The notes under the pieces: model-generated
Told to the model about the DNA's origin: nothing
The model's input: only the letters and a program-made list of their open reading frames with translations
The model's database searches: none
Assembly: GCA_018902845.1 (NCBI GenBank)
Contig: JAHIPV010000017.1
Coordinates: forward strand, 16,438-80,437
Origin: Patescibacteria group bacterium
GTDB taxonomy: Bacteria; Patescibacteriota; Microgenomatia; UBA12405
Reading direction: 5' to 3'
DNA: 64,000 nt
Part shown: one piece after another, positions 14,778-49,383 of the stretch
How the letters are laid out: each line of letters begins with the position of its first letter
Position numbering within the stretch: position 1 is the first letter of the stretch
Made by a program: the position numbers and the translations under genes

Positions 14778-16391
14778 TTACCAAACTTCTCTCAACAATT
14801 TTCCCATAATTACACCCTTACTAATCACAGTTTCGTAGTCCATTTCAAAATAATTTTCTTTCATTTCCTCAAGTAAAATTCCAGCCCACCTATAACTCAC
14901 CGCTCCAAATTGATCCGGTTGTTGGCCTTTTGCTTCTTTCAATCTAGTAATCCTGTCAATCAATGATTTTTCTATTTTCATCTGCCTTAACTTTTCATCA
15001 GCTTCTTCATAAGTCACAGTTCCTGTCAGCTCCGTATTAATCACATCTCCTAAATTTTCTACTAGTCTTGTACTAAGTACCATTTCTTTTTTTCTTTTTC
15101 TAAAAGAAAAAATAACATCCAACAAAGAATCACTATTATTTTCCTCTGCGAAAACAACACAACCTAACAGATCTTCGTCAAAGGGATATTGATTTAACAA
15201 TAAATTACAATCTTTTCTAATCAATTCATAAACAGGATCAGTCCAAAAACCCAAAAACATTTCTTTTTCCTCAACGTCAAAAAAATAAAATTTTGTCTCC
15301 CCAATCGAAATATTATCTTCAAAATATCTCCAACTATCTTCATTTCCGCTGTTTCCGGTTATCAAATGATATTCGCCTCCGCTACCAATAGGTATTACAT
15401 TTACACCACAGCCATTAATATCTCCTCTATTTTCTACTACCACAAAGCCTGTCTCATCTGACTCTACTGGTTCATCCCCACCACAAAAAACCTTCAGATA
15501 AGCAGGCGATCCAATATAAAATACCAAAGAATCAGATAAATCTAAAACATCTGAAACCAAAATATCATCAGCTTCAAAACCAAGCTCGTTTAATACATAA
15601 GCAGTACTATTATCAACAATCTCTCCATGATTAGAAAATACCGAATTACTCCCAAAACCATCAACAATCGCACTTTTTTGCAAAACAGTTCCGTCACCCA
15701 AAAGAGTATCTTCATACCTCAACGGCCTACCATCCACCCATCTTCCCAACAATTTGTCAAATGTACTTCTTTCCCCCAAAACAGCATATTCACTCGTATC
15801 AAATCCTATTCCACCAACAGTCAGCAGGGTATCGGAAATATCCAAAACACTTTCATTTTTATTCTTTACATAATTGTTGACAGTATACAAACCTTGATAG
15901 GGGATTAAGTCTGAACCATACTTAGCAAAATCAAAAACCGGTAAAATATCTTTTAAAGAAGGACTAAAATCCTGAACTAATTCAACAGAAGAAATGGGGT
16001 AATTTTTTTTATTTAACTGCAACAATACATTTAAAGCAATAGAACTTACACCCCCACCAAATTCCGCCCCACTCCACGCATTATATGCCTTAATAGCTCC
16101 AAGATGAGGGCTTCCCAAACTAATTACTTTATTTAATCTTGTATCATCTTTATTATCCTGTGCCCACATTCTGCCGACCATACCCCCCAAACTATGCCCC
16201 ACAATAGTAAAATTCTTCTCTACGGGTATTTTTTCATCTACAAATTCATCAAACCTTTCGACAATTTCGGAAACTGGTCTTCTCCAATCATAATTCCAAA
16301 CAAACAAATCAGCCGTCTCTCCAATACCCACAGTAGTCTCATCCTCATACCCCTTAGATTTTAAAGTGTTTATTAAACCATCGTAATTTTT
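14778..16391 (-). pseudogene. 3' half (537 codons) of an element-interrupted secreted lipase/acyltransferase-like alpha-beta hydrolase gene
   Basis: YDWRR, GHSLGG nucleophile elbow, GSPHLG, GDGTV; frame stays open 60 nt upstream of the ORF-track start up to the att core and is in frame with 48532-49383. Confidence 0.85.
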
Positions 16392-16416
16392 TACAAAAGG
16401 TGTACTCTAATACATC
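16387..16416. other. Left attachment junction (host half-site, AC crossover, element half-site)
   Basis: TTTTTT-AC-AA-AAGGTGTACTCTAATACATC; core TTACAAAA at 16391-16398. Confidence 0.82.
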
Positions 16417-16487
16417 ATAATTAACATCTTTAATTAAATCGTTGCACACAAAGAAGACACAACTAAAAATACTCAGGATTTAATAAA

Positions 16488-16979
16488 ATGAGGTTAAGCA
16501 AAGCTTTTAGAAAAAGAATAGAATTAGGTTATATGGATTTGTATACAAAACTACAAACGAAAGAAACGAAAGTCAAACAAAATACTAAAAAAGTTGACAC
16601 TAAATACATAGTGGCAATAATAATAAGTTTAATAATTGGCGCTTCAGTCTTAGGCTATGGGTTTCTTAATTACCAATACAAAATGAATGCCTTGAATGAA
16701 AAGACAAGATCAGAGGAACAAGCAATTGAACAAAAGAAAGCAGAAGAAGAAGCAATAAAACAACAATATGCTGATTGTGCAAAAGAAGCAGTAAAAAGAG
16801 CACAAGACATTTTAAAAAGCAGGGTGGAACTAATGGAATCCACAGGTAAAACAAACAATACTGAATACAAAATGTGGAAAGAGGCAATAAAAAAGAATCT
16901 ATTTGACAAAGATGACAAAAATGAATATTACAACGATTGTCTCAAGAAATACGGTCTAGAACTTACCGTAGAAGAATAA
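16488..16979 (+). CDS. Hypothetical single-pass membrane protein with coiled coil
   Basis: One TM segment followed by a charged helical region; true start may be later. Confidence 0.55.
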   Translation: MRLSKAFRKRIELGYMDLYTKLQTKETKVKQNTKKVDTKYIVAIIISLIIGASVLGYGFLNYQYKMNALNEKTRSEEQAIEQKKAEEEAIKQQYADCAKEAVKRAQDILKSRVELMESTGKTNNTEYKMWKEAIKKNLFDKDDKNEYYNDCLKKYGLELTVEE

Positions 16980-17003
16980 AATTACAAATTCATTGAGAGA
17001 TAA

Positions 17004-17495
17004 ATGAAAAACACCGTTGCATATCACGAAGCGGGGCATGCTGTTGTCGAGTTTTTTCTTTTTGGAAAAGTAAAAAAGGTAAGCATAATACCAGGCAAGG
17101 AATTTCAAGGTCAAACAACTTCGTATTCGGTAAAAAACCTTGACCCTGATATCGACTTTTCACCCAGAACAAAAGATAATTTAGAGAAAATAATTGTCAT
17201 TTTTTATGCCGGGAATGAAGCCACAAAAAGGTTCAAGGGCCGATACGACTATATTGGATCACAATCTGACTATAAAAAAATTGGTAATATCTCTATCTAT
17301 CTTACAACTGGAGGCAAAGCTGAAGGTTATTTCCTGAAATACCTTAGAGAACGAGCAAAAGACTTGGTTAAACATCACTGGAGTTCCGTAGTCGCTCTTG
17401 CAGAACAGCTAATGGTGAAAAAAACAATGGAAACAAAAGAAATAGAAGATGCTATTAGATGTTCTTGGAAAGGAGGTAAACAAAATGACACATAA
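17004..17495 (+). CDS. Stand-alone zinc metallopeptidase domain (FtsH/M41-like)
   Basis: AYHEAGHAVV, AG.EA, GSQSD motifs; no AAA domain. Confidence 0.7.
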   Translation: MKNTVAYHEAGHAVVEFFLFGKVKKVSIIPGKEFQGQTTSYSVKNLDPDIDFSPRTKDNLEKIIVIFYAGNEATKRFKGRYDYIGSQSDYKKIGNISIYLTTGGKAEGYFLKYLRERAKDLVKHHWSSVVALAEQLMVKKTMETKEIEDAIRCSWKGGKQNDT

Positions 17496-17828
17496 ACCTA
17501 TTTCAGCAAAGCAAAATCTAACAAATATTTTAGAGGCCTATGCTTTTTGTACATTACTTGCATCTATTGGGTTATATCCTTATATCCTGATAATTTCGAG
17601 ATTTTGACAACAAACAAATCGCTATCTAGGAAAATTATTGTGGCGGGTTTTTGGTGGTTTACTTGATAGGATTAAATATGGAACTAGCATTTATTCTCAT
17701 TCTCACCGGTGTGTTTTGTGTAGGCTTTTGGTTTGGTAGAAAAAGCAAATAATATTTAACTTAAGGTGGGACCATGGATTTGTACTACAGGAAAAAAGGT
17801 TCAAAGCTTTTGGGACGATTTTCAAACT

Positions 17829-19310
17829 TTATTTTTCAACAGATGAAATATTGGTTATCCAAAGGTCGTTTGAGTATATGTAGATTTTCTCCTTAAACCC
17901 TTCAAACTCTTTTACCAAACTAGACTTGTTGATTAAACTTTCTAAAGCCTGAGATTTTGGCAACTTCTGAGTACTTGATAAATAAACCACTACAAAAGAT
18001 GGCTTAATCTTTTCAATTTCTTCTTTTGAATTGTGAAGATCAAATTTATAATATGTTTGTTTTATTCCAACCCCAATACTTTCTTCCGTTAAAATAACGG
18101 CATCTTCAGGAACTAAACTATTTATATATTCATACGTTGCCAGTAAAGCATTGTCATTACGAATAAAAAACCTTTTGTACCAAGTAAAACTGTTAATTAG
18201 TAAGATTATGCCCAAAAATACATGAAGTCGCAATCGATTTTTCTTAGAATTTATCCAAGCAGAAAGGGCTACTGTTAAATATAGATACAAGGGTGTTAAT
18301 AGCATTATTAAGTATTGAGGTGCTCTAAGTGAAATTCCAGCATAAAATAATAATGTAGCCAATGACCAGCTTAATAACAGGGGTTGTTTGGGCTTGACTT
18401 TACCGACAATATGCTTAACCAAGTCTCTAACGACGACAAGTGTTCCTATTAACAAAGTTAATATTGTTGAAATATAAATCCAATATGTGTTAACCATGGC
18501 TTTTATTGCATCGGAAAAAGAATACTGTACCCCACGGGCACCAAATATTCCAAATGCCCTTTTGATTTGAACCATGTTTTGATCCAGATATATTTGACCC
18601 CAATTTAAATACATGACCAAAACATAAGTAACAATTGTCAACAGTCCAAACAGATATAAAGATATATGCTTTTTTGGATCTCGTTTTGTGAATATTAAAT
18701 TTAATAGAGGTACACCAAAATAATAGATCCCTGTATGTTTGTAAATTACCGTTATCGCTAACATAACACCCGACAAGATATACCAAATATTCTTTTTCTG
18801 AGATATTGCGTATGAGTAAAGAAACAACGAGATAATTCCAAGAAGTATCATCATGTTTTCCATCAAATTAAGACGATTGGTATAAATTAACCAGCCGTCA
18901 GAAGCCATTAGCAAGATTGAAATAATAGATACTTTTTTATTAGCTAGTTTTTTAAAAAAATAGTAGGTGAATAACAGTGCAATTGAGGATGCCCCGGCAG
19001 ATACAATTCTCGCACTAGTTACACCTTCAAAGCCCGTGTATTGAAATACTAGACTTTTTAATTTTGAATCAAACGGAGGATGATATAAATAAGGTCCATA
19101 GCCTTTTTTACCTTCTAATTTAATAGCGGGATAATTGTAATCAATATAGTTTGAAGATATTGAGGAATAGACAGGTTCGTCCCATTCATAACCTGGTTTT
19201 GAATCAATCTTGTACAATCTCAACATTAAGGAGATAACAACCACAAGATTTACCATCACCAGTTCAGATAGAAAATTATTATTTTTTAATAACGTTGTTA
19301 GTTTTTTCAT
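17829..19310 (-). CDS. GT-C fold membrane glycosyltransferase (ArnT/PMT-like)
   Basis: WDEPVY, YHPP, multiple TM helices, C-terminal extracellular domain. Confidence 0.8.
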   Translation of the reverse strand: MKKLTTLLKNNNFLSELVMVNLVVVISLMLRLYKIDSKPGYEWDEPVYSSISSNYIDYNYPAIKLEGKKGYGPYLYHPPFDSKLKSLVFQYTGFEGVTSARIVSAGASSIALLFTYYFFKKLANKKVSIISILLMASDGWLIYTNRLNLMENMMILLGIISLFLYSYAISQKKNIWYILSGVMLAITVIYKHTGIYYFGVPLLNLIFTKRDPKKHISLYLFGLLTIVTYVLVMYLNWGQIYLDQNMVQIKRAFGIFGARGVQYSFSDAIKAMVNTYWIYISTILTLLIGTLVVVRDLVKHIVGKVKPKQPLLLSWSLATLLFYAGISLRAPQYLIMLLTPLYLYLTVALSAWINSKKNRLRLHVFLGIILLINSFTWYKRFFIRNDNALLATYEYINSLVPEDAVILTEESIGVGIKQTYYKFDLHNSKEEIEKIKPSFVVVYLSSTQKLPKSQALESLINKSSLVKEFEGFKEKIYIYSNDLWITNISSVEK

Positions 19311-19314
19311 TGTT

Positions 19315-20388
19315 TTAATGTAGTTGAAAATAACGAAGTACTTGATCTGTTTTGTTTTTATTCATAAAATATCGCCATTTAAAAAAATGTATCGAAAAGT
19401 CATAGATCAAAGCACAAGTGATTGGTGGCAAAAAAAATGTGTAAAAGTCTTTTTCAATAAAAACATTTACCAACCCCGCGACAATCAGTCCAAACAAAAC
19501 AAAAGCTGGTATTGTTACAAACCCAATAAGTCCTTTGGTGAAAACGGTAAAAACAGATAGTAGCAAAATAAACAGACTTAACACCAATACTGCATGTACT
19601 TGGAAGTTTCTCCTTTTGGCAAATGGACAATCAGGATAATATTTAAGCATTAAAGCGGCACTCTGGCCACTACGCGATATTTGTCTGAAATACTGTTTCC
19701 ACCTTATTCGATGTTTGTGATATGAAACTACTTGATTAGTTACTAATATTTCAAAACCATTTTTAACTAACAACCATGAAATGACATAATCATCGTAAGT
19801 ACTGGCTTCTTTTGAAAAATTAAGCCCAAAATCCTTTTTTATTGAATTAAAAGCTTTTTTCGACAATAACAATGCGGTTGTTACTGGTAAACTTTCGGTA
19901 TTCCCAAAATTATTAATGTTTAATTTACCAAAAAAAGGAAAATCAGGATTGTTTTTGATTAAAGCCTTGTCTTGTAATTTTGAAATTAAGAGTCCCGAAT
20001 CTTCTTGCCAAGAAACCGCTGTTCCTGCTACAACTTCAACTTTGTATTGTTTTGAAAGTTTAATAGCAAGTTTAAGTGCGTCTTTTTTAAGTGTTGCTTT
20101 AGAATCAGTGAAAAATATATACCGACCTTTAGCTCTATTTGCTCCTACCCATCTTTTTAAATGAGCGTCTCTTGTGTAGCTTTTTCCTGGTTTAATCTCG
20201 ATATATTTAACTGTCCTGTTTTTTATGTAATCCCTTATTGCTGATCGAGTAGAATCGTTAGAAGATGCCACAATGATAATTTCAAATGGTCGACAAGACT
20301 GAGCCAACAAGGACTTGACCGTCTCCCTTACAGTAGCCTCTGATTCTCTGGCGGGAATGATAACAGAAATTTTATTATAAGTAGTCAT
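19315..20388 (-). CDS. Glycosyltransferase family 2 with C-terminal TM helices
   Basis: ISVIIPAR, FTDS, YDD, RQISRSG. Confidence 0.8.
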   Translation of the reverse strand: MTTYNKISVIIPARESEATVRETVKSLLAQSCRPFEIIIVASSNDSTRSAIRDYIKNRTVKYIEIKPGKSYTRDAHLKRWVGANRAKGRYIFFTDSKATLKKDALKLAIKLSKQYKVEVVAGTAVSWQEDSGLLISKLQDKALIKNNPDFPFFGKLNINNFGNTESLPVTTALLLSKKAFNSIKKDFGLNFSKEASTYDDYVISWLLVKNGFEILVTNQVVSYHKHRIRWKQYFRQISRSGQSAALMLKYYPDCPFAKRRNFQVHAVLVLSLFILLLSVFTVFTKGLIGFVTIPAFVLFGLIVAGLVNVFIEKDFYTFFLPPITCALIYDFSIHFFKWRYFMNKNKTDQVLRYFQLH

Positions 20389-20523
20389 GTACTAAAAAGT
20401 TTTGCAACAAAATATAGCAAACTTGAGCATTATACATCTTATAACAGAAATTTACAACACATTACGGGTTTAAGTGTAAAAAGGGAGTGGATAAGAAATT
20501 CTATATATAAACTTTAGATTCTC

Positions 20524-20880
20524 TTAGCTATTAACAGTCAATTCAATTTTGTCTATCCTTTTCTCCAACACTGAAACCTCGAAAGACTTAAGAACCATAC
20601 CTGTTAGAAAACCAATCGTATTGGCTACTCTACAATCTAATCTTCCATCTCTCACCTCATTTATCGTATCAACCAACAATTTGGTTACATCTTCCACTTT
20701 CTCTATTTTTATTTGTGGTAGGGGAGAAGACACCACCACTCTTCGATTCTGACCACCTTTAACTTGAACACTCCGTTTTTCATTAGCAGTTATGTCTGGA
20801 TTGTGAAAATAACAATAATCACTATCTTTCATGGCATTAGCCTGACATCGTTTTCCTTTAATATTTTTTTTACATTTCAT
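20524..20880 (-). CDS. Small Cys/His zinc-binding protein (HGGxSTG-like, phage/satellite-associated)
   Basis: C..KGKRCQANA...YCYFH...KGG pattern. Confidence 0.5.
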   Translation of the reverse strand: MKCKKNIKGKRCQANAMKDSDYCYFHNPDITANEKRSVQVKGGQNRRVVVSSPLPQIKIEKVEDVTKLLVDTINEVRDGRLDCRVANTIGFLTGMVLKSFEVSVLEKRIDKIELTVNS

Positions 20881-20941
20881 AAGCTACTTATGGGGGTACT
20901 CATTATAATTTACAACAGAATCAGCATCACATTCATCCAGA

Positions 20942-21145
20942 CTACCCATACCACTTCAAAAGTGGCAGAATAACAAGGCCGTGCTTACTTATAACCTCAT
21001 CCACTTTGCGCTCCACCCCTTCTTTGTCTTTGTAATAATTAACCCCACCTCGCTTGTAAGCAATAATTACAGTATCTCTTAAATCGTTCGTTTGGGACAT
21101 TATCACTTTTTCTAATTTATTAATCCTTACCGCTAAACTTGTCAT
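20942..21145 (-). CDS. Hypothetical protein
   Basis: ATGA overlap with the helicase stop. Confidence 0.5.
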   Translation of the reverse strand: MTSLAVRINKLEKVIMSQTNDLRDTVIIAYKRGGVNYYKDKEGVERKVDEVISKHGLVILPLLKWYG

Positions 21146-22170
21146 TTCTTTTCTTTTGAATTAAATAATTGTTGGGCAAACTTTGTATTCACCTCTTCCT
21201 TTGTTTCTGTTCTAGACTGTGGTGTTATTTCTTTAAACAAAACTCTGTTTTCTAAAAATTCCATTCTCACATCTTCCGAAGGTGACTGATCCCTAAAATT
21301 ATCTAAAATTAGTTGAGTTTTAACCTTGATGTTTTGACTGCTCTTGTAATTTTGATACGGTCGCCAAACTATCAGTGTTCCAGAAAGTTGAGACTTCGCT
21401 TGACCACCTCCATAAATATCTTGTGCGGTGGGCTTTCTTATAACTCGGATTGAATCATCAAAAATCTTGTCCGGCTCGTTTTCTTTCACATATTCCTGAA
21501 CCATTTTAGGTAGCTCGCTAATAACCACTGTTTCTTTAACGTGATTTAAAATAAAAGAAATTATCGGCCTGTGTTTTGTAAAATTCACAATTTGAGTGAT
21601 ACATGACATTAATTTTCTCCAATCGCTCGCTTCATTTTGTGAGATATAGGTGGTTAAATTGTCATAGATTAAAACATTCACCATTTTCTCATCTGCTAAG
21701 ATTTTTGATATTTGCATAGCTTTGTCGAAATCCACCAAATTCTCTTTCATTAGTTTCTCGGCTGAAACTCTAAAGAGTTTATCCTTTGTTTGTTTCGCAA
21801 AATCTTGTCTCATTTTGATATTTTCCTCGGCTTCGCTAACGGACAATCCAAACCACAAGGCCGTCATTCTGGAAGAAAATTGAAACGTGTTTAACTCTGT
21901 ATCTATAAAAGCAACTTTCTTGCCTTTTCCAATCATGTTTATTGCGATCTTCATCATTAGAGAAGATTTGCCTGACTTTTGAATTCCGGCTACCATGTAA
22001 CAACCACCGGTTCGAAATCCTTTGAGTTGTAAATCAAGATTTGTAAATCCACTCATTATTCTTGGTGGGTTTAACTCCTCTTGCTCCAGTTCGAGAATTG
22101 AATCTAATAAATCTTTTTGAGGCTTTAGCTTCTCGACTGCACTTCTTGCCTCATTGTTTGAATCGAACAT
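21142..22170 (-). CDS. DnaB-like RecA-fold helicase/ATPase
   Basis: SGFTNLD, Walker A GIQKSGKS, IDTE, IYDNL, IYGGG. Confidence 0.8.
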   Translation of the reverse strand: MFDSNNEARSAVEKLKPQKDLLDSILELEQEELNPPRIMSGFTNLDLQLKGFRTGGCYMVAGIQKSGKSSLMMKIAINMIGKGKKVAFIDTELNTFQFSSRMTALWFGLSVSEAEENIKMRQDFAKQTKDKLFRVSAEKLMKENLVDFDKAMQISKILADEKMVNVLIYDNLTTYISQNEASDWRKLMSCITQIVNFTKHRPIISFILNHVKETVVISELPKMVQEYVKENEPDKIFDDSIRVIRKPTAQDIYGGGQAKSQLSGTLIVWRPYQNYKSSQNIKVKTQLILDNFRDQSPSEDVRMEFLENRVLFKEITPQSRTETKEEVNTKFAQQLFNSKEKK

Positions 22171-22799
22171 TATTTTGCTCCTAGTAAAAATTTAACAGCT
22201 TGAGGAAACGGCATTTTATCCCTAAGCATAAGAAAATCTATTGAATCACCATGTTGACCACAACCAAAGCAATGAAAATGATTATCTTGAAAGACCGTAA
22301 AGGACGGGGACTTTTCATCATGGAACGGACAACAAAAGACCAAATTGCCACCCATGCGCCTAGGGTTCTCGTTTATTAAATTTTCTATCCTCGATTCTCT
22401 CGCAATCTCTATGTCGGTTTCCGTTAAGTTGTCACAACGCCGTGACATTTGTTCCTGATACAAAGCTCGTCTATACCAACCTATTTTCTTTTTTAGTTCG
22501 ATTAGCCTCTTTCCTGGTGCATGGATTATGTATTCGTCATAAATCAACCTCCATATTTTGTCACTAACACAATTTTCTAAGACTTCATAACACGATTTGA
22601 TTCGAGCCTCTACATTCTCTTTTTCCAATTCGGCCTCGAGCAATAATTCGTTAACTCTTTTTTCCATCTCCGGAAAAGCTAACATCCATTCGTGAGGAGA
22701 TTGTGCCAAGTCTTGCAGAATCTTTTCTCTCCACCCTCTCCCTAATTCATCAATGTAGCCTAGATGTTCCGTCATTTGAGTCCTCCTAACAAATGCCAC
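22170..22799 (-). CDS. CHC2 zinc-finger protein (primase Zn-binding domain, no TOPRIM)
   Basis: CPFHDEKSPSF, HCFGCG, GDSIDF at the C terminus. Confidence 0.85.
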   Translation of the reverse strand: MAFVRRTQMTEHLGYIDELGRGWREKILQDLAQSPHEWMLAFPEMEKRVNELLLEAELEKENVEARIKSCYEVLENCVSDKIWRLIYDEYIIHAPGKRLIELKKKIGWYRRALYQEQMSRRCDNLTETDIEIARESRIENLINENPRRMGGNLVFCCPFHDEKSPSFTVFQDNHFHCFGCGQHGDSIDFLMLRDKMPFPQAVKFLLGAK

Positions 22800-23269
22800 A
22801 TCTTATCTTCTGAAATAATTTTAGACTTGAGGAGTGTTTTTTCTTCAAAAGCTGTTTTTAATTCCGTTGTCTTTATTGGTTTTAATGTATTGTCGGTAAC
22901 TCGTCCACACTTCGTACCTACTTCCGCACTTCTCACTTCCGCACTTCGGGAGTTAAGTGCATAGGAGTTCCGCACTTTAGGTGGTTGAGAAAGTAAAGGT
23001 GCATAGGAGTTCCGCACTTCGTAAATATTTACCATACCACCCTGTATAGTCTTTTCTCCAACTTTCTCAAATAACCCTGTTCTCTTAATAGCTGATACCA
23101 CTGTCTTGTCTGATACATGCGCCATCTTGGCAATTGTCCTGTGTGAGGCATAACACTGACCTAAACCATTATCTGAAAATGAAAACATAGCAAGCAAAAC
23201 AGCTATATCCTCTACCCTGCCGGTAAGAGTTAGTAGTCTGGGGTCAATTCGAATGATAAAACTATTCAT
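22772..23269 (-). CDS. Putative replication initiator with N-terminal winged HTH
   Basis: CYASHRTIAKMAHVSDKTV HTH typical of phage initiators; internal direct repeats; upstream of the Zn-finger and helicase genes. Confidence 0.6.
   Translation of the reverse strand: MNSFIIRIDPRLLTLTGRVEDIAVLLAMFSFSDNGLGQCYASHRTIAKMAHVSDKTVVSAIKRTGLFEKVGEKTIQGGMVNIYEVRNSYAPLLSQPPKVRNSYALNSRSAEVRSAEVGTKCGRVTDNTLKPIKTTELKTAFEEKTLLKSKIISEDKMWHLLGGLK
22904..23019. repeat. Iteron-like direct repeats (putative origin)
   Basis: TTCCGCACTT at 22922, 22937, 22968 and 23010; 21-bp GTGCATAGGAGTTCCGCACTT at 22957 and 22999. Confidence 0.75.
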
Positions 23270-23292
23270 TTTACATTTCTAATGACCCAGCG

Positions 23293-23529
23293 CTAGGTCA
23301 CCTGATAAATGCGACTTTTTAACTCGTTAATGGTCTCAATCAAGTCCCTTGCCTCTGGTCGGACACCATCACGATCCCAATATCGCTTCAATAATTCTTC
23401 TGCCGTTCCCTTATCGTCCTGAAATACAAAATTGACAAACTTGGCATTTTGTTTCTCAAGCCGAAGTAACGAAAATTTCATTACCTTTAAAACTACCGCA
23501 CTGTAAAAATCGTTCGTTATATATTCCAT
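23293..23529 (-). CDS. DUF5659-like small protein
   Basis: T.DFY.A..L and LKSRIY pattern recalled from mobile-element replication modules. Confidence 0.55.
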   Translation of the reverse strand: MEYITNDFYSAVVLKVMKFSLLRLEKQNAKFVNFVFQDDKGTAEELLKRYWDRDGVRPEARDLIETINELKSRIYQVT

Positions 23530-23637
23530 TTTCTTTTTTAATTAATAAATCTTTGTCATCAAGTAAATCACCAAAATACAGGCAAATTCTTTTGATAACA
23601 CTTTTCTTTAAAACCGGTGAAAGATTGGTAGTTATTA

Positions 23638-23835
23638 TCATTTCTTTCTGTCTTTCGGCCAAAATCTTGTAAGGTGATCCCAATATTTTTTAGACACTAA
23701 AATATCTCTCACCGAAGCAGGAACTTGAGAATCCAAGGTTAATTCTTCATCGGCACGCAAAAAAAGACCGGATTGTGTTAGTAATAGGTGAGCAATATCT
23801 TGAGTAAGGTTATTTGAAATTCTTCCTTTTATCAT
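23638..23835 (-). CDS. Hypothetical protein
   Basis: Co-oriented small ORF in the replication operon. Confidence 0.4.
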   Translation of the reverse strand: MIKGRISNNLTQDIAHLLLTQSGLFLRADEELTLDSQVPASVRDILVSKKYWDHLTRFWPKDRKK

Positions 23836-23890
23836 TAGATATAGTCTAAAGATGCGAGAAAGGTTAGTTAAACAGGAAATGCGTGGTTAG

Positions 23891-25291: not shown

Positions 25292-25300
25292 AAATGAAAA

Positions 25301-39048: not shown

Positions 39049-39167
39049 TTGAGAATCCAAACAAATTCAAAAACCGATTCAGAAACGGAAAATAATTAAG
39101 CTTTATAAAGTATAATCAAGGTAAGTTATCGGACAGTTTGTTTATTTCCATTTTATAAAAAATTATC

Positions 39168-40691: not shown

Positions 40692-41934
40692 GTTATTTAC
40701 TTATATTGTTGTGGTTTTTTCTTTTTTTCTTGGTCCTAACTTTACCTATGCTTCTAACACACATCCCGAACTTTGGCCTGTTCGTTCTATAGACACAATG
40801 AAAACATCACGAGACAAAGCGCGGGCTGAATTAAACAATCCCGATTTTGATACTCAAATAGAAAAAGAACTCACACTTATAAAAGAAATAGGGGCAAATT
40901 ATGTGGCCATAGATACTCCATACGACAAAGAATTTCTTCCCTTTTTAAAAAGATGGATAAGTTTAGCCCGCAAAATGGGGCTAAAAGTTTGGTTTCGCGG
41001 CAATTGGTCCAATTGGGAAGGCTGGTTTGAATATGAAAAAAACATGACTCCACAGGAACACATTAGAAAAACAGTTGAGTTTATAGAAACCAATCCGGAT
41101 TTATTTGAAGATGGCGACGCCTTTGATCCTTGTCCGGAATGCGAAAATTCGGGGTGGTGGAAACAGCCTCAAGATGACGAAAAATATAATCAATTTATTC
41201 AGAATCAGCGTATAGCGGTAAAAACATCTTTTTCCAAAATAAAAAAAGATGTACATAGCAACTGGTTTTCCATTATTGGAGGTCGTGCCAAGGAAGTATT
41301 AAACAAAAAAACATTTAAAACATTAGACAATCTGGTCACTATTGATCATTACATTAAAGATCCTTTGGGAATGGGTGAATACATTGATTACTTTTCTCAA
41401 AACTTTGACACAAAAGTATTGCTTGGAGAATTCGGCGCTCCTATTCCAGACATCAACGGAGACATGGATGAAACAGAACAAGCAGAATTTATAAATCAAC
41501 TTTTTATACAATTTTATAAACATAAAGATAATGTGCTGGGGATGAACTACTGGGTAATTACCGATGGAACAACTAGTTTGCTTAACAGTGACGGTACAAC
41601 CCGTCAGGCATTTGAAATAATTAAAAATTACTATATTCCAGGTGTCATCAAAGGAACAATTAAAAACACACTAGGTGATCGGTTGAAAAACATATCAATC
41701 AAAACCAGCGATGGGTTAAACAGCGCTATTACAGACCGCAAAGGAAGTTACAAAATGATTGTCCCAGCCGGTGATACCACTATTTTAATTAACCAATCAA
41801 AATACGATCAAGCAACAGACAAAATCACTATTTCCCACGGAAGCGAAATCACCAAAGACATCATTCTAACTCCAAAAACCCCGTCGATTCTCTACAAACT
41901 CCGCCTTTTTTTAAAGAAAAAATTTAATCTATAA
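40645..41934 (+). CDS. Secreted TIM-barrel glycoside hydrolase-like protein with C-terminal beta-sandwich (carboxypeptidase-regulatory-like)
   Basis: Signal peptide (start probably ~40675); GLKVWFR, IDHY, LGEFG clan GH-A-like motifs; TDRKGSY domain. Confidence 0.65.
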   Translation: MELLRYMNCKMKKIIKLFTYIVVVFSFFLGPNFTYASNTHPELWPVRSIDTMKTSRDKARAELNNPDFDTQIEKELTLIKEIGANYVAIDTPYDKEFLPFLKRWISLARKMGLKVWFRGNWSNWEGWFEYEKNMTPQEHIRKTVEFIETNPDLFEDGDAFDPCPECENSGWWKQPQDDEKYNQFIQNQRIAVKTSFSKIKKDVHSNWFSIIGGRAKEVLNKKTFKTLDNLVTIDHYIKDPLGMGEYIDYFSQNFDTKVLLGEFGAPIPDINGDMDETEQAEFINQLFIQFYKHKDNVLGMNYWVITDGTTSLLNSDGTTRQAFEIIKNYYIPGVIKGTIKNTLGDRLKNISIKTSDGLNSAITDRKGSYKMIVPAGDTTILINQSKYDQATDKITISHGSEITKDIILTPKTPSILYKLRLFLKKKFNL

Positions 41935-41983
41935 AAATAAGAAATAATAGGCAATATTATATCAACAGAAGCCTAGAGAGATC

Positions 41984-42277
41984 TTAGAAGCCTTTTAAAA
42001 AGTCCGAAAGGGTTAATCCAAGAACATGTGCAAGTCTCCAGACAGTGTGAAGACTAGGTGAATAATAACCTTGTTCAATCTTGTTTACATATGTCCGATA
42101 ATAACCTGCATTTAAAGATAGATTTTCTTGGCTAATTCCTCTCTTTTCTCTAATCTTTCTTAAATATTTGCCAAACTCTATACCAAATCGCCCTTTTTCA
42201 GTTTTTCTGTCTTTTTGTGTATCAATAGTGGATGGTTTCACATCTTTATTACAAGACAACCACAACAGTAATACCAC
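41984..42277 (-). CDS. XRE-family HTH regulator
   Basis: LRKIREKRGISQENLS...YVNKIEQG..SPSL. Confidence 0.85.
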   Translation of the reverse strand: MVLLLWLSCNKDVKPSTIDTQKDRKTEKGRFGIEFGKYLRKIREKRGISQENLSLNAGYYRTYVNKIEQGYYSPSLHTVWRLAHVLGLTLSDFLKGF

Positions 42278-42295
42278 GCACTAGTATGGTAGTAA

Positions 42296-43738
42296 GTGGT
42301 AAAATATGAAATGAGAAGCAGGGTTGACCAACTAGTTTTAGCCAGAAGGATTATTTTCTTAGTTGTATTGTTGGTTTTAGCTATACCTTATGGACAGATC
42401 GCGAGAGCTGAAGAAGTTATTTATAACTTTAAAATTACGGCGACAAACCCCACAAACGGCGAAAACAGTGTTCCAACTAATTTAAAGGATGGTAACTGCC
42501 AAAACCAGTATTGTGCCTTAATGGTTGGCCTAGGAAACTCAGATAAAAGCCCAATGGGGCATGGTTATCCGTTTTTAGTACCGGATTCAATTAATACTTC
42601 AACCATTCAAATTACTGGGTCTAACAACCCGTCTCAAATAAAGGTTATGGGAGAATCAGAAGGAGGAGGCGATGATAGCTTTTACCATTCAAACGCCCTG
42701 TTTCTATTTAACTCATTGGGTAATCTTTATTATCTTGAGCCAAATTCAACTTATTCGGTAACCTTTAAAGGAGGAACGAGTGGGGTAAAGGCCCAATATG
42801 ATTATGGTGAATATTTTGCGTATTTAGATCAAGATTATACTTTTAGTTTTACGACAGGAAACGGACCGTCAAGAACAAACGAAGATTATCCTACACTAAC
42901 GGCGAGACCAACACTAACACCAAGCGTTTCCTTAAAGAATGATTCTGTAGAAGTTAGGCTAACTTCTACTCCAATACCCATGTTAATTGATAAAAAAGAT
43001 AATATTCCCACGACAAGTAAACTCACCGTTACTTCCAGTGCTTCACCGACAATCTCTATTCCCGCAAAAAAGGAAGATGACATTACTGTTACTTCGGATG
43101 ATTTTAAAAGTTCTAGCAAAATAACATTTTGGCAAAGAATAAAAAATTATTGGACCAATTTTATAAATAAGTTGTTTAAAAAAACTAAAAAAAAAGAAGT
43201 AACAATAAAAAACATTGCCCCTGCGCCTTCTGTGATTCAAGGGACACCAACGCTAATACCAGCGAATACGATAGCCCCTCTTCCTACAAAGAAACCCTTA
43301 CCCACAATCAATACTAAACCTCTGTCTATTATTAATGAAAATGTACTTAAAAACGAATTTGGAATAAGTGATTTGGGTGTAATTGCGTCCATTCTTGATA
43401 GCTCTGAACAACTTGAAAAATACGAGAGAGAATATTATCAAAAAAATAAAAAATGGCCAAAGCAAGAGTCAACAAATCAAAAATTAAGAATATTTATCCC
43501 TAGTATCAATGCTACAAAAACATGTCAAGGAAGTAATGTTGTTGAGGTTAAGAACGCATCTATAGGTGTAGACAATGCAAAGGTTAAGAGGGATGAATGT
43601 TTTCGTAACGGAGGTGAAAAAAAAGAAGGAATGAGTTTGGATGAACAAATTGCCAGTTTTCAAAAAGGCTGTTATCAAAAAGATTACTCGGTAGCAAAAG
43701 ACACACTAGATGAATTATTAAGTAAATATTGCCGATAA
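42296..43738 (+). CDS. Secreted Ig-like (Big_5-like) protein with Pro/Thr-rich stalks
   Basis: Signal peptide; ITATNPTNGENSVPTN...LEPNSTYSV...DYTFSFTTG. Confidence 0.6.
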   Translation: MVKYEMRSRVDQLVLARRIIFLVVLLVLAIPYGQIARAEEVIYNFKITATNPTNGENSVPTNLKDGNCQNQYCALMVGLGNSDKSPMGHGYPFLVPDSINTSTIQITGSNNPSQIKVMGESEGGGDDSFYHSNALFLFNSLGNLYYLEPNSTYSVTFKGGTSGVKAQYDYGEYFAYLDQDYTFSFTTGNGPSRTNEDYPTLTARPTLTPSVSLKNDSVEVRLTSTPIPMLIDKKDNIPTTSKLTVTSSASPTISIPAKKEDDITVTSDDFKSSSKITFWQRIKNYWTNFINKLFKKTKKKEVTIKNIAPAPSVIQGTPTLIPANTIAPLPTKKPLPTINTKPLSIINENVLKNEFGISDLGVIASILDSSEQLEKYEREYYQKNKKWPKQESTNQKLRIFIPSINATKTCQGSNVVEVKNASIGVDNAKVKRDECFRNGGEKKEGMSLDEQIASFQKGCYQKDYSVAKDTLDELLSKYCR

Positions 43739-43770
43739 ACAAATGACATCAAAAAGTATCAAATCCAAAA

Positions 43771-44472
43771 ATGAATAAATTAAAAAACATTGCCAAGTGG
43801 ATTCTATTCTTACCTATTAGCCAATTATTATTTTTCCTAGTGTATATCATGCTTTCGTATGGATATATGGTCGTCTGGGAATTCATAAAAAATCAAAACT
43901 TTGTAATTTTGATCCTTCTACTTCCCGCAATTATTTCGGCAGTTGTATCAATTACCTTTTATTTAAACCTTTTTTCTGCCTTTATTACAGAATTAATCTC
44001 TCCTAACAAAACAACTTACTTTTTATCTTTTGGTCTTTTAGTTTTTCGTCGCTTGAAAACAACAATCACCTATTCTCCAGTAGCCACAACCACCGACAAT
44101 GCTCGCATAATAGATATGCCTATGCCAATGCTACTAATTGTCTACTCGGCTCAGTTATTAATAGTTCTAATTTATGGTCTCTTTAAATATCACAATAAAA
44201 GCGACTCAGACTCCAAAAAGCCAATTTTAACCATACCCGCAAACGATCCTACTAAGAAAAATATAGGTGAACACAATAAAAATATTCTCATAAAACATAA
44301 GCCCCAACCATACAACCCGATAGAGTTCCCGACACTGGTAAAGTACAACGACCAGCAGATCGAGGACGCAATCCAGAAATTGATGAAAGAACACGGCATG
44401 ACGAGACACCAGTGTCTGGTGAATCTGGAGCAGGACTTAAGCGAGATAGAGGCAAGAGCGACAGGGAAGTAG
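43771..44472 (+). CDS. Hypothetical membrane protein
   Basis: Several N-terminal TM helices. Confidence 0.6.
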   Translation: MNKLKNIAKWILFLPISQLLFFLVYIMLSYGYMVVWEFIKNQNFVILILLLPAIISAVVSITFYLNLFSAFITELISPNKTTYFLSFGLLVFRRLKTTITYSPVATTTDNARIIDMPMPMLLIVYSAQLLIVLIYGLFKYHNKSDSDSKKPILTIPANDPTKKNIGEHNKNILIKHKPQPYNPIEFPTLVKYNDQQIEDAIQKLMKEHGMTRHQCLVNLEQDLSEIEARATGK

Positions 44473-44488
44473 GTATAATAAGTATAAA

Positions 44489-45094
44489 ATGAAAAAAAAT
44501 ATTTTATTTAAAATTCCAATTTTATTAATTGGTTTGTTTGTTGGTTACAATTTAAGAACCAAGCAGGTAATTAAAACTAAAGGATCAGTAATATCTAAAT
44601 CAGTTTGTGATGAAGTAATGAAAAGGGTAGTTTTAGATCCTGTTAAAAAATATGAAGGTAAACCTGCTAAGGTAGACTTTTCAACCGATGATTTTGCGGC
44701 ACAGTTTCATACTGCGATTACAAATCAAGTTGCTTTAGGTCCAAACTTTGCCGGACACTATACTTTTGCAACATGGGGATGTGGAACAAGTTGTTTAAGT
44801 TATGCAATTGTAGATTCCATATCTGGAAAAATAGTTTTATCTGATGGTGCTCTTGAAGAAGAGCACCTTACACCGCATTTTGATATTAATAGTCGGTTAT
44901 TAGTATTTAATTCTAAAGATGACTTTGAGCAATATAAGGGTAAAAATATTAACGAGATTCTTGATAAAGACAGGTTTGATTTTGATGGTTTAAGCCGAAC
45001 ATATTATGAACTTGTGGATGAAGGAAATTGGGATAGGGTTTGGTTAAATAAAATATGCACTGAAAGTGTCCTAGATGGAATCTATAATTATTAA
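44489..45094 (+). CDS. Hypothetical exported protein
   Basis: N-terminal anchor; PNFAGHY...WGCGTSC motif. Confidence 0.6.
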   Translation: MKKNILFKIPILLIGLFVGYNLRTKQVIKTKGSVISKSVCDEVMKRVVLDPVKKYEGKPAKVDFSTDDFAAQFHTAITNQVALGPNFAGHYTFATWGCGTSCLSYAIVDSISGKIVLSDGALEEEHLTPHFDINSRLLVFNSKDDFEQYKGKNINEILDKDRFDFDGLSRTYYELVDEGNWDRVWLNKICTESVLDGIYNY

Positions 45095-45698
45095 TATCTT
45101 GGTAAGTCAAATAACAAAAAATGAAAAAAACAAAATTTATTTAGCAGTAGTCTCAATATTAGTTATAGTTGGATTATTTTTATTTAAATACAAAAACAAC
45201 AACAAAGTTATTGTTGACCAAATTCAAACCAATACCCCAGAAGAGCCGGTACCGACAAAGACAAAACCAATCGTATTTACCCAAGAACAATTAGATGAGT
45301 ACTATCAAACAACTAAAAATCCATATGTACTTCATATCAGAAAAGTCTTGGATGGTTATTTAAATGGCAAAAATATTGGGATGGCTTCTCCAGAACTTGT
45401 TATTGAAACGCACAAAGTAGAGGAATATACGGCTGGATTATCTTCAATTGACAAAGAATACTACAAGAGTAAATTTATTGTATTTTCAATGAATGACAGT
45501 ATTGCAGGTGGAGTAGAGGTCTCAATTATATTTCAAGATAAACCAGATAAACTATTTACAGTTTGGGTGTATCAATTAGCTGGTGGTGAATATGATTTTC
45601 GGTCAATAAGAGATAATCCCAAATTCACTTTAGAAAAAATGAAAGAAATACAGATATTGTACAAAACTATCCTTGAAGACGAGGTTCATTCAATTTAA
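45075..45698 (+). CDS. Hypothetical single-pass membrane protein
   Basis: N-terminal TM helix, Pro/Thr linker. Confidence 0.55.
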   Translation: MESIIINILVSQITKNEKNKIYLAVVSILVIVGLFLFKYKNNNKVIVDQIQTNTPEEPVPTKTKPIVFTQEQLDEYYQTTKNPYVLHIRKVLDGYLNGKNIGMASPELVIETHKVEEYTAGLSSIDKEYYKSKFIVFSMNDSIAGGVEVSIIFQDKPDKLFTVWVYQLAGGEYDFRSIRDNPKFTLEKMKEIQILYKTILEDEVHSI

Positions 45699-45766
45699 AT
45701 TCACACACAAAGGTCCTAACTTCTCCAGGACACTAGAACACGGCTAGATTTGGAATAAATAAATCT

Positions 45767-47155
45767 ATGAATACAAAATTAAAATCAATTTTCACAAAAG
45801 TTTTCTTTATTTCAAAATGGCTAATTAAATGGATAAGGTGGTTACTTTTTTTACCTTTATCTTTTTTAATCACTGCTGGTGTATATTTCTTACTTGGTGA
45901 AAAATATGCCGAGTTAAAACCCGACTTATTCCTATATCAACCATTAGCCGACCTAGTACCAGGCTTAGAAGCTCCTAATCAGTCAGAATTACTTCCCTAT
46001 CAAATAATATCTGGATTACTACTAGGCTTTGGCTGGATCTTCGTAGGAACAATTATTGCCCCGTCAAAGAAATTTTTTTCATCTTCTGTGTTGTTTTTGT
46101 TAACTACTATATTGATAATTGTATATTCCATATCTTCACCCGATCTTATCGCACCACAACATTTATTTGCCTTTGTTTTCACAATTTTAGCCGTAATTAT
46201 TGCCTATCCTAAAAAAGTCTTGAAATTAATGAAGACCCCCTTTGGGGAATATATTAGGCTTAGTTTGATTCTATCAACGGTTACTATGTTTGGTTTGTTT
46301 TTTTATAACAAAAAAAGTATGAAACTTAACTGGACAATAAATAAAAAGATGGAACAAGAGGAAAAGATGTACCCTGACAGAGTGGCTCTTGATATGAATG
46401 GTGACGGAATATATGAGATGTTAGTCAATCCGGTTATGGCTGACGACTATGAAGAAGCGACTGATTCGGCAAAACCACATCTAACTCTTTACGATAGTGA
46501 AAAAAATATCATTGCAAGAACACCGGAGTGGTTTGGATCAGCACCCAATGCAAGTCATTTGGGTTTTGTTACTCCACCCATAAGTTGCTCGTTAAATGAT
46601 TTTGTACAAATTGATGTAATTGCTGGACCGCACCAAACAGAAACTATGTTTTTAAAACTGAAGGATGATTTATTGCTTCCAATCTGTAAAGTGGAAAATC
46701 CCAAGAACATAGACGATTGTTTATTCTATAACTCTAGCGGAGAATTAGGTGTTGAGGGAGGATTGTTGGGAGGATTAGGGGGTAACAATAAGCTAGGTGT
46801 TGTTGAATATGTAGACGAATATCCTCCTGATAAAAAAGAACTTGGCGATGATATAGAAAACATGATTAGCGAGGTTTTTGGAAATGATGCGACAGAAGCA
46901 ATAAAAATTGCCCAAAGAGAAACGGGTGACAAGGGGTCACGAGTGGCTTGGTCTATCTACATATTTAACGGAGAAATATTTGAACTACAAACAGGAGAAA
47001 ATTACGACGAATATTTTGATTCACTAAAAGAAAACTATGATTTCAGGTCAGAAGCGAAAAAGGATAATAGTCCTAATTTAATTAAAAAATCAAAAATGTC
47101 AAAAGAATCAGTTGAATACACTGAGCTTACGAGAAACTTTTGGACTGATAAATAG
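45767..47155 (+). CDS. Hypothetical multi-TM protein with acidic extracellular domain
   Basis: About 5 TM helices, then a DMNGDG Ca-binding-like loop. Confidence 0.6.
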   Translation: MNTKLKSIFTKVFFISKWLIKWIRWLLFLPLSFLITAGVYFLLGEKYAELKPDLFLYQPLADLVPGLEAPNQSELLPYQIISGLLLGFGWIFVGTIIAPSKKFFSSSVLFLLTTILIIVYSISSPDLIAPQHLFAFVFTILAVIIAYPKKVLKLMKTPFGEYIRLSLILSTVTMFGLFFYNKKSMKLNWTINKKMEQEEKMYPDRVALDMNGDGIYEMLVNPVMADDYEEATDSAKPHLTLYDSEKNIIARTPEWFGSAPNASHLGFVTPPISCSLNDFVQIDVIAGPHQTETMFLKLKDDLLLPICKVENPKNIDDCLFYNSSGELGVEGGLLGGLGGNNKLGVVEYVDEYPPDKKELGDDIENMISEVFGNDATEAIKIAQRETGDKGSRVAWSIYIFNGEIFELQTGENYDEYFDSLKENYDFRSEAKKDNSPNLIKKSKMSKESVEYTELTRNFWTDK

Positions 47156-47184
47156 TCTAAGATATAGACAAATGTTACAATTCG

Positions 47185-47637
47185 GTGATGGCAAGCTGTA
47201 AGGAATTAAGGGGGATCGCAAAAGCCAGACTTAAAAGTGCAAAGATACTTATGAATGTTAATGACTGGCATGGCGCAGCGTATATGCTAGCCTACGCATT
47301 GGAATGCTCTCTAAAGGCCGTAACCTGTAAAACCTTAAATTTGGTTTCTTACCCAGAAAATACAAAAAAGAAAAATATTGACTCCGTTTTTATGACCCAT
47401 AGTTTCCAACAACTCTTGCTCATTTCTGGATTAGAGAATATTTTTAGTTCCAGAGGACCGGCGGAGGCGTGGGATAACTGGGGTAAATTTACTATAGAAT
47501 ATCCTGCTAATTGGCCTCAAATTAGATATAATACTGACCTTGTTTGGGATGAAGAAAAAGTCGAGAAGCTATACGACTATCTCTTGGAATCAAGATTTGG
47601 AATAATAAGTATAATTAGGAAGAGGAGAAAATGGTAA
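47185..47637 (+). CDS. HEPN-domain protein
   Basis: ARLKSAKIL...AAYMLAYALECSLKA...THS..LL...IRY. Confidence 0.75.
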   Translation: MMASCKELRGIAKARLKSAKILMNVNDWHGAAYMLAYALECSLKAVTCKTLNLVSYPENTKKKNIDSVFMTHSFQQLLLISGLENIFSSRGPAEAWDNWGKFTIEYPANWPQIRYNTDLVWDEEKVEKLYDYLLESRFGIISIIRKRRKW

Positions 47638-47990
47638 AAATATTTAAAGAAATTCTAGAAGAAATAGTTTCCAGAAAGGGCGAAGTGAATTTGTTCGCTA
47701 TTTTGAAGATGGACGAATATACTGAAAAATGGACCGTTATCTTATCTGCTCCTTGGGTAAATGACGAGAACACAAGAGAGTGTTTCTTGCTATTGAGAAC
47801 CTTTATGATAAAAAAGTTTAGTCGTGAAGAGATGGATAAGATTGCACGGATGGGTGTTTTTACAAAAGACGAACACATAATAACAGAATTATTAAAATTT
47901 AAAGAAGGAACAGTTATCGAGGAAGATGAAAAAATAAATGGGAATTTAGTACACGAAGCGCACATATTGGCCTCAAACTCCAGTCTTTAG
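47631..47990 (+). CDS. HEPN-coupled hypothetical protein (candidate antitoxin/partner)
   Basis: Overlaps the HEPN stop; acidic; WTVILSAPW. Confidence 0.55.
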   Translation: MVKIFKEILEEIVSRKGEVNLFAILKMDEYTEKWTVILSAPWVNDENTRECFLLLRTFMIKKFSREEMDKIARMGVFTKDEHIITELLKFKEGTVIEEDEKINGNLVHEAHILASNSSL

Positions 47991-48088
47991 TATTTTTCGA
48001 GATAAAACCCAAAACTTATAGAAAATTCCTGCACACACAAATAGTAAATAAGTTGATTGTATGAAACACACGAAGTAAGATATGGAAA

Positions 48089-48277
48089 ATGAAAACTGAA
48101 ATATCAATCTTTCTTAAAGATTATGATTGTAATGTAGTTGAGCAAACAGAAAGAGCTAAGGGCACTCGTTATAAAGCCTATGGTTATTTTGATGATATTT
48201 ATCTTGAGACTCAGGGTTCAAGCTTTAATTCTGCACTACGCAGATTAAAACATAAAGCAGAAATGGCATTAGATTAA
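48089..48277 (+). CDS. Small hypothetical protein
   Basis: 62-aa ORF with upstream -10-like TAAGAT. Confidence 0.4.
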   Translation: MKTEISIFLKDYDCNVVEQTERAKGTRYKAYGYFDDIYLETQGSSFNSALRRLKHKAEMALD

Positions 48278-48507
48278 GGTATTTAGAAAGAAAAATGTTG
48301 CAAAATCTGAAGTTTTCGGAAGTACTCTTTTTTTGATGGGACAAATCTAATTCCAAGACCTAAAACAAGAAAAATGTTAGTTTGTTTAAATCCCACACAG
48401 GTCCCTGACTCCTCCAAGGTGGGGGAGCAAAACCAAGTCAATTACGAAATTTTTACCACCCAACCAACACACATAATTATTACCAACAAATAGTCGAATA
48501 CACATCA

Positions 48508-49383
48508 TTAGGTGTATAACGGTACATTCCTTACAAAAAAAGGCATTTTCCATTCCAAAGAAGGACTGGTACTTCCCGTCAACAACCCCTCCCCATTCCA
48601 ACTCCCTCCCAGCCCCGGCACCACCACGACAGTATCCGAATTATTTCCTCCAGAAACAGAACTAATCTTTAGATTGTCAAATTCATTTAAAACCCTGCCA
48701 TAAGAACCTTGGTAAAAATCTCCACCCCAATTCCTAAAAGCAATAATTCCACCACTCAAAAAATTATTATCCGTATAATCAATAACCAAAACAGAATCAA
48801 AATATATTTTTATCTGAACACTGTCAAATACTATTTTTATCACATGTTTTTCATTTTGAGTTATATCAAAATCCAAAGAGTTAACAGACTCACCCTCCGA
48901 CTTACCATAAACCTCAACAAGGCGTCCATAAGAACCACCAACGCTTTTACTCAAAGTGATATTGTTATGATCTTGATCCCAATCAGGTTCATCAAATCTA
49001 AAGTTAATTTCATAAAAATCACTTCTATCATCAGAAAGATGAAACCAAAAAGATTGATCAACACCATTCAAATTTTTAACCTCAGCAACCAACTCAAACG
49101 ATGAAAAATCGTAATTAATATCAGGATAAATATACGATCTTTCATGATATCCGGCTTCACCAATTAATTTATTATCCAAAACACGCCAACCATACTCACC
49201 GACAATAGGATCTTCGTTTTCATCAAGACTATACCCATCATGCGGAACAATCCATTTACTCAAACCAAGAGAAAAATCATCCTCAAAATATACAGTAGCA
49301 TAAACATCACCAGATTCTAAAAATGATAAAATTACAATCAAAGAAAAAAAGAAACAAACGAGTTTACTAAGAATATTCTTCAT
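48508..49383 (-). pseudogene. 5' half of the interrupted gene: signal peptide, concanavalin A/DUF1080-like domain and first strand of the hydrolase
   Basis: FEDDFS...FDNLKI lectin-fold pattern; VVVVPGLGGS oxyanion loop; last 7 residues RNVPLYT come from the element. Confidence 0.85.
48511..48541. other. Right attachment junction
   Basis: GGTGTATAACGGTACATTCC-TT-AC-AAAAAAA; core TTACAAAA at 48531-48538. Confidence 0.82.

Follow-up and report, generated by a model that had tools for sequence, protein, structure and literature searches.

In several bacteria, a coding frame is split by an element that encodes a large serine recombinase (LSR), and excision with the help of a directionality factor rejoins the two parts. 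Excerpts of the published accounts describe this arrangement for SPbeta in spsM (PMC5499854), skinCd in sigK (PMC5025042), and the comK prophage of Listeria (PMC7397523, PMC8987985). Distantly related LSRs also share target genes; in the portions of Durrant et al. 2023 (PMC10083194) available here, comM accounts for 12.4% of site-specific LSRs and one prolyl isomerase site is used by 33 LSRs. Similarly, the lipase (geh)-converting phage L54a of Staphylococcus aureus causes negative conversion, the benefit of which is called unclear in an excerpt that considers a switch role possible (PMC6036120).

Here, we analyze a window of 64,000 nucleotides (contig JAHIPV010000017.1) from the genome of an ultra-small groundwater bacterium of the Patescibacteria, in which a gene for a predicted secreted hydrolase is split by a 32,140-bp LSR element. 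The gene is a recurrent integrase target, entered at two fixed crossover points by two LSR lineages that are approximately 24% identical. The element is probably mobile DNA residing in a conserved, likely dispensable gene; loss of the gene would be a by-product of integration, and excision would serve the exit of the element rather than host regulation. We read it as mobile DNA with a conserved target because its replication genes are kept, its presence varies within a species, and a related element lies in opposite orientation with other cargo in another genus (genome G275).

The split gene, its junctions, and its empty state

The initial annotation of the window described a host gene that is split by the 32,140-bp element and yields 821 aa upon precise deletion, and both a shared core and intact homologs bear this out. 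Two copies of an 8-bp core, TTACAAAA, stand at 16391-16398 and 48531-48538, with identity ending at the core edges on both sides. Deleting in silico the 32,140 bp between them rejoins a single 2,466-nt frame with one terminal stop, as had been claimed, and the fused 821-aa product carries PGLGGS at residue 256, YDWRR at 318, and GHSLGG at 349. Taken alone, the core 8-mer is weak evidence because the window has 18 occurrences of it (15 on the plus strand and 3 on the minus strand). It carries weight because homology fixes the break point independently; intact homologs read straight through that point (...PFV|KNYDGL), and the chance of meeting the 8-mer at positions fixed in this way is about 1e-4. 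A search for uninterrupted homologs of the fused protein, which the initial annotation had called for, found both halves matched by 102 of the 120 homologs listed. P0003 (817 aa) comes closest, at 63% and 52% identity to the two halves, together with P0002 at 81% over the C-half, and those bearing names belong to Candidatus Shapirobacteria. GC skew is -0.23 to the left of the element, -0.02 within it, and -0.25 to its right.

Codons 1-284 of the host gene (48532..49383, minus strand) encode a predicted signal peptide, a beta-sandwich resembling lectins and carbohydrate-binding modules, and the PGxG strand that opens the hydrolase domain. In the occupied state, the corresponding open reading frame (ORF; 48508-49383) extends 7 codons into the element arm before reaching a stop. 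The remaining 537 codons (14778..16391, minus strand) encode the rest of an LCAT/PGAP1-like alpha/beta hydrolase and its C-terminal domains; this part is preceded, 6 codons upstream in the element arm, by an in-frame stop, and its earliest start codon is the internal GTG at 16331. The description of the N-half as a signal peptide followed by a lectin-like domain stands in part. The signal peptide is called from an N-terminal hydropathy peak only, and the lectin-like domain is suggested by weak Pfam and PDB profile matches (PF06439 at E 5e-4, below cut-off; levanase carbohydrate-binding chains such as 4azz at E 4e-5 with the family profile). The C-half matches LCAT, PGAP1, and Abhydrolase_1 above the Pfam cut-offs and has the GxSxG nucleophile motif with conserved Asp and His expected of an LCAT/PGAP1-like alpha/beta hydrolase. 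The putative catalytic residues Ser351, Asp517, and His539 (whole-gene numbering) occupy columns that are invariant in 67 homologs and are present in the C-half of the window. Overall, the host protein is predicted to be a lipase/acyltransferase-like enzyme. Residues 245-666 of the Atlas model of P0003 align to an LCAT-family model, and the hydrolase domain therefore begins upstream of the break. Since the insertion parts the signal peptide and the PGxG strand, whose loop we take from LCAT-type enzymes to have an oxyanion role, from the catalytic triad, it likely inactivates the enzyme. In G275 (L139, G275:C25, ~25500-25550), an in-frame ATG contributed by the element arm stands immediately ahead of the crossover, and a leaderless C-half of 498 aa (P0062) could be translated from it; at the same place in the window genome (G000), the opposite arm sets a stop.

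The left junction (16391..16420, plus strand) consists of the core, in which AC at 16393-94 is the inferred crossover dinucleotide, and then one attachment arm that has a homologous counterpart at the G275 junction. The right junction (48505..48538, plus strand) consists of the other arm, 14 bp of which are identical in G275, followed by the core with AC at 48533-34. The element ends form an imperfect inverted repeat; of 30 mirror pairs, 15 match around AC in G000 and 16 around GC in G275, compared with 10 and 6 at the respective host sites. Inverted-repeat ends around a central dinucleotide are what an excerpt on SPbeta leads one to expect of a serine-integrase site (PMC5499854). No second internal copy of either arm was found in G000 at up to 3 mismatches, and a promoter scan at the left junction stayed at chance level. 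The arms also imitate the host codons they replace. The left arm of G000 (16391-16405) reads T-P-F-V, the usual motif of the family, and arms at a second insertion site (L099, L141, L151) read Q-G-F, Q-G-L, or Q-G-V where the host has P-G-L.

The source bin of the window comprises 24 contigs (1.06 Mb), and the sequencing runs that contain it come from groundwater. Six runs were compared as assembled contigs, and four of the six were informative at a junction; X7 gave no matching pieces, and X11 gave no junction piece. The empty site (attB) predicted by the initial annotation exists. In X12, a single 1,104-bp contig (depth 7) joins 15384-16398, with 3 differences in 1,015 bp, directly to 48531-48627, with 0 differences in 97 bp, and has a 30-letter loose end equal to 16361-16390. 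The empty allele is thus present in a strain that is ~99.7% identical in the flank. X13 contributes a bridging contig of 158 bp (depth 3.8), also with an empty site, that differs at 3/30 and 2/39 letters and is taken as a relative rather than the same strain. In both runs, the empty state is read from bridging contigs and not from missing cover of the element. The occupied site, on the other hand, appears in X2, a possible source of the bin, where an unbroken contig of 38,534 bp crosses the left junction at a depth of 77.8, next to 83.2 and 83.4 in neighbouring host contigs; from its extent, we infer that it also reaches past the right junction. It appears likewise in X8, a run not marked as a source, where a contig bridges the right junction with 0 differences. 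X2 and X8 therefore show only the occupied site, and X12 and X13 only the empty one; among the pieces listed for the six runs, neither both states together nor a circle junction was seen. This absence is weak evidence because contigs drop rare forms and, according to an excerpt on active lysogeny, excised forms may be masked in total DNA (PMC6036120). In X11, a very small run, depth rises from ~4 to more than 40,000 around the integrase (23364-26400), likely through amplification bias.

Recurrent targeting of the gene within the order

The host gene adjoins lepB and parB in G000, G275, G008, and other genomes. A copy was found in 102 of the order's 132 genomes (61 of the 77 of high quality), and in the wider class it is matched by 209 of 401 sampled genomes, counting one marked unpublished (G126). 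It was not found in 30 of the 132, including 16 of the 77, and is likely dispensable. By hand count, the 102 gene-bearing genomes divide into 85 in which the gene is uninterrupted across both sites, 5 in which an element splits it, and 12 that are unreadable owing to contig ends, a gap, a frameshift, or partial matches, so that 5 of 90 readable copies are split. Site 1, in the F-V/A|K codons, is occupied in G000 and G275; site 2, at the second Gly of PGxG, lies 75 bp (25 codons) upstream and is occupied in G008, G367, and G371.

At site 1, the LSR of G275 is 73% identical to that of the window and adjoins the C-half of an ortholog that is 37% identical to the window gene. The junction has homologous arms and the same crossover position, with GC instead of GT centrally, and the element has the opposite orientation and different cargo. 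The 14-bp arm occurs exactly in 2 of the 132 genomes only, G000 and G275. Matches with one mismatch, found in 10 other genomes and a second time in G275, were dropped as no commoner than in a reversed control. At site 2, the three LSRs are 83% (over 156 aa) and 33-35% identical among themselves and 24-25% identical to the window LSR. G371 holds a complete element of 14,263 bp, which carries both a tyrosine recombinase and an LSR (L141:3358-4290, 15219-16922), ORFs of 1,093 aa and 429 aa without a family, and a weak small-terminase match. Contig ends truncate the loci of G008 and G367, and the N-half was not found in G367, a genome that is 86% complete. We considered whether G008 and G367 use a different site from G371, and rejected this on arm spacing and the contig end of G008. 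Modelled empty sites give 748 aa in G275 and 750 aa in G371. Among query matches in the 132 genomes, only G008, G367, and G371 hold a site-2 LSR above 30% identity, and only G000 and G275 a site-1 LSR above 40%.

Several other irregular copies were set aside. The short frames of G019, G047, G052, and G012 are two adjacent frames or contain internal stops, with no inserted DNA, and that of G375 is a scaffold gap. Contig ends also fall in or near the stretch that holds both sites (model positions ~205-290) in some 18 genomes of the order out of the set chosen for broken matches, including G003, G004, G056, G348, G356, G358, G361, G364, G369, G372, G374, G402, G405, G406, and G411, and outside the order in G248 and G193. 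These ends could reflect mixed occupied and empty populations or conserved DNA common to strains; no Recombinase-family match was found in G361, G406, or G369, the contigs of which break near site 2.

The position of the two sites coincides with sequence conservation. In 30 intact copies, they lie in the second and fourth most conserved 40-nt windows of the gene, and windows centred on them rank at the 99th and 92nd percentile. Conserved target DNA is what a recombinase moving between species requires. The relatives of the site-1 LSR point to a further shared target, since the nearest of them (35-46% identical) are located at comM or form in-frame fusions with the C-terminal part of ComM. The fusions (L023, L024, L025, and L026 in G087, G175, G217, and G337, as well as P0131 and P0132) join at the NPCPCG motif in frames of ~650-790 aa, and an unfused comM piece lies beside the LSR start in G023 and G209 and ~6 kb away on contig C8 of G371. 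In a quick tree from which the G371 site-2 LSR was left out, the site-1 LSRs branch beside this comM-associated clade, which suggests a change of target between comM and site 1 in either direction. Single-protein scans of metagenome and genome contigs returned only LSRs of 26-30% identity, and four scans of viral contigs returned no matches.

Gene content of the element

With one core copy counted, the integrated element occupies 16399..48538 (32,140 bp), as delimited by junctions, runs, and GC skew. That it is a serine-recombinase element, as first annotated, is confirmed by an intact LSR of 520 aa (25301..26863, plus strand), an open frame with the catalytic Ser motif at its N-terminus and with Resolvase, Recombinase, and Zn_ribbon_recom domains above the Pfam cut-offs. 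Immediately upstream, at a distance of 9 bp, an excisionase-like helix-turn-helix protein of 81 aa (25046..25291, plus strand) is a candidate directionality factor; HTH_17 matches, TIGR01764 matches just above cut-off, and PHROG excisionases match as well. Recombination directionality factors share no common motif, according to an excerpt on SPbeta (PMC5499854). A replication module (21142..23529, minus strand) encodes a DnaB-like helicase, a CHC2 zinc-finger protein, an HTH_36/O-like initiator, and DUF5659 by Pfam and PHROG matches. Its DnaB-like and DUF5659 genes recur in the G275 element, and the DnaB-like gene recurs in that of G371. A possible small terminase subunit (26995..27507, minus strand) is a lead only; the ORF has no match in Pfam, NCBIfam, or PHROG, and the Atlas clusters closest to it are viral, with Terminase_2 occurring in 15% of the members of one of them.

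The cargo was assigned by Pfam. It comprises a type I restriction-modification operon with M, S, and R genes (27620..33248, plus strand); a PMT-like membrane glycosyltransferase with a family 2 glycosyltransferase (GT2; 17829..20388, minus strand); and two GT2s, a LAB_N protein, two PMT-like proteins, and a predicted secreted protein (33997..41934, plus strand), a set that likely serves surface glycosylation. A last group (41984..47990) contains an XRE regulator and a HEPN protein paired with a small partner, as well as five membrane or secreted proteins without an assigned function; two of the five have homologs of 51% and 68% identity on contig C8 of the same genome. The LSR gene lies inside the element, at distances of 8.9 kb and 21.7 kb from its junctions. 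In G275, the arm corresponding to that at 48538 lies ~100 bp behind the LSR, as compared with 21.7 kb from the LSR (25301) in the window, and from this difference the restriction and glycosyltransferase cargo was likely acquired between the integrase and its attachment site. G000 encodes eight further LSR-like ORFs, two of them partial, so such elements appear routine in this genome. Contig C8 (L184-L186) has three LSR-like genes within 60 kb, together with two methylase/restriction pairs and a reverse transcriptase that weakly matches a retron-type defence model.

The element resembles neither a prophage nor a conjugative element in its gene content. No capsid, portal, large terminase, or tail gene was found in the 34 element ORFs by Pfam or in the 21 scanned against PHROGs, where divergent versions are possible among several ORFs without a family. 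Likewise, Pfam identified no relaxase or type IV secretion (conjugation) family in the 34 ORFs, and we do not classify the region as a prophage or as an integrative conjugative or mobilizable element. The three-domain recombinase, the hybrid junctions around a central dinucleotide, and the empty site in a close relative identify it as an LSR integrative element.

Mobile element, gene switch, and comparison with known systems

We propose the following course of events. The recombinase would pair the inverted-repeat site of the element with the F-V-K codons of the host and exchange strands at the central 2 bp, and the excisionase-like protein would flip the recombinase to excision. The DnaB/primase/initiator module may then replicate the excised circle, which could spread via a helper, possibly a phage; a helper is proposed because no relaxase, conjugation, or virion genes were found. 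Integrases would converge on this gene since the motif codons are the most conserved DNA in a class-wide, losable gene, and carriers would secrete the lectin half at most.

The initial annotation raised the possibility of a regulated switch like those of skin and SPbeta. Host-controlled excision in some cells or life stages, for example upon host attachment, would turn on the secreted lipid hydrolase. The frame is restored exactly in all three modelled cases (821, 748, and 750 aa), the recombinase is intact and accompanied by a candidate directionality factor, both halves are free of stops, and two LSR lineages converge on the same gene. Contigs, moreover, lose rare variants, and excised forms can be masked in total DNA in the excerpt cited above (PMC6036120). 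That excision would restore the gene, as claimed, is supported by the exact frame and by the natural empty allele that matches it. LSR insertion is, however, precisely reversible by mechanism. Exact restoration is therefore no sign of regulation. The informative runs each show a single state, no piece listed has mixed states or a circle junction, and the X2 contig crosses the left junction unbroken for 38.5 kb at close to the depth of its host neighbours (77.8 versus 83.2/83.4). In addition, the gene is uninterrupted in 85 of the 90 readable order genomes, and the elements vary in size, cargo, and orientation and keep their replication genes. The claim of a regulated switch is thus not supported, and we consider one quite unlikely. 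A domesticated, immobile switch, a type that in an excerpt on comK has lost its mobility genes and is inherited vertically (PMC8987985), was rejected in view of the intact replication module, the presence and absence within a species, and the independent insertion in another genus. Bolder still, and very doubtful, is the idea that Patescibacteria of this order recruited excisable LSR elements twice, independently, to switch a class-wide secreted lectin-phospholipase with which they harvest host-cell lipids.

The other reading offered at the outset, a simple insertional knockout, comes closer, but the insertion is not a one-off in a gene that is a recurrent site-specific target. The knockout could itself be selected, if the element profits by disabling a surface enzyme that hinders the entry or spread of mobile DNA or acts as a phage receptor, a benefit of the kind also proposed for competence genes as targets. 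The cuts made by two unrelated LSR lineages both separate the PGxG strand from the catalytic Ser, the element brings surface-glycosylation and restriction genes, and the nearest LSR relatives stand at or are fused to comM, a competence-linked target that is enriched in the available text of Durrant et al. (PMC10083194). Against this, the host protein has no known function, the sites coincide with conserved DNA and are explained without selection, and five cases are too few to tell selection from conservation; we regard a selected knockout as unlikely. It is hardly conceivable that the arrangement results from misassembly, with the element joined into the gene by the assembler, or from chance, with the halves being separate genes. 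The bin is in 24 contigs and X2 is possibly its source, but X8, which is not so marked, bridges the right junction without a difference, a homologous element with its arms sits at the same base in G275, and most listed homologs (102 of 120) hold both halves in one protein.

We therefore favor a mobile LSR element in a conserved target, although several observations weigh against it. No excised circle was seen, and mobility is deduced from distribution; the dispensability of the gene is judged from incomplete genome bins. A check of 18 loci outside the order, chosen for short frames from the 209 matching genomes, revealed neither an LSR nor an inserted element at this gene. The most conserved window (YDWR) and the third (GHSLGG) have no insertion in the five cases, so conservation alone does not choose the sites. 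Finally, the halves are free of stops wherever they could be read, namely both halves in G000, G275, G371, and G008 and the C-half in G367; this is compatible with recent insertion and equally with regular excision.

These elements add two new integrase/attachment-site pairs in Patescibacteria, a group poor in genetic tools, and the sites are conserved enough for use across genera. Occupied and empty strains within one species are natural knockouts for testing the role of a secreted LCAT-like enzyme. Such cells are thought to be unable to synthesise their own fatty acids, and the LCAT-like family, with its matches in 209 of 401 class genomes, may be a candidate for lipid uptake. Were excision regulated, active lysogeny would extend to ultra-small bacteria; a true switch, coupled to the transition between free and attached life, would give the candidate phyla radiation its first programmed gene rearrangement.

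That LSR lineages share a target gene is already known, and what is new is this target gene. The text of the PMC10083194 supplements contains none of the terms LCAT, Abhydrolase, PGAP1, lipase, Shapirobacteria, or Patescibacteria, figure content being outside this comparison, and no published report of the target was found in the searched literature, where subscription papers were mostly outside coverage. As with the LSRs of Durrant et al., a three-domain LSR enters an intragenic target and distantly related recombinases meet on one conserved gene; here, the target is a lectin and LCAT-like hydrolase of Patescibacteria, and the two lineages enter it at two crossover points separated by 75 bp. 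As in SPbeta, skinCd, and the comK prophage, an LSR element splits a coding frame that excision would rejoin, with the same chemistry as SPbeta and skinCd. Excision has been demonstrated in those systems and tied to host sigma factors or life stage, whereas here it is a prediction. By target, the nearest analogue is L54a, likewise a mobile element within a secreted lipase gene. L54a is a full phage with a tyrosine integrase; the present element has an LSR, no recognised virion genes, and an uncultured Patescibacteria host. Phage satellites similar to phage-inducible chromosomal islands (PICI-like) encode an integrase, an excisionase, a primase/helicase module, and a small terminase, and no virion genes. 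The element is similar to these in its integrase, excisionase-like gene, primase/helicase module, possible small terminase, defence cargo, and in that no capsid or tail genes were found, and it differs in its size (32 kb, larger than typical), its internal integrase, and having no known helper.

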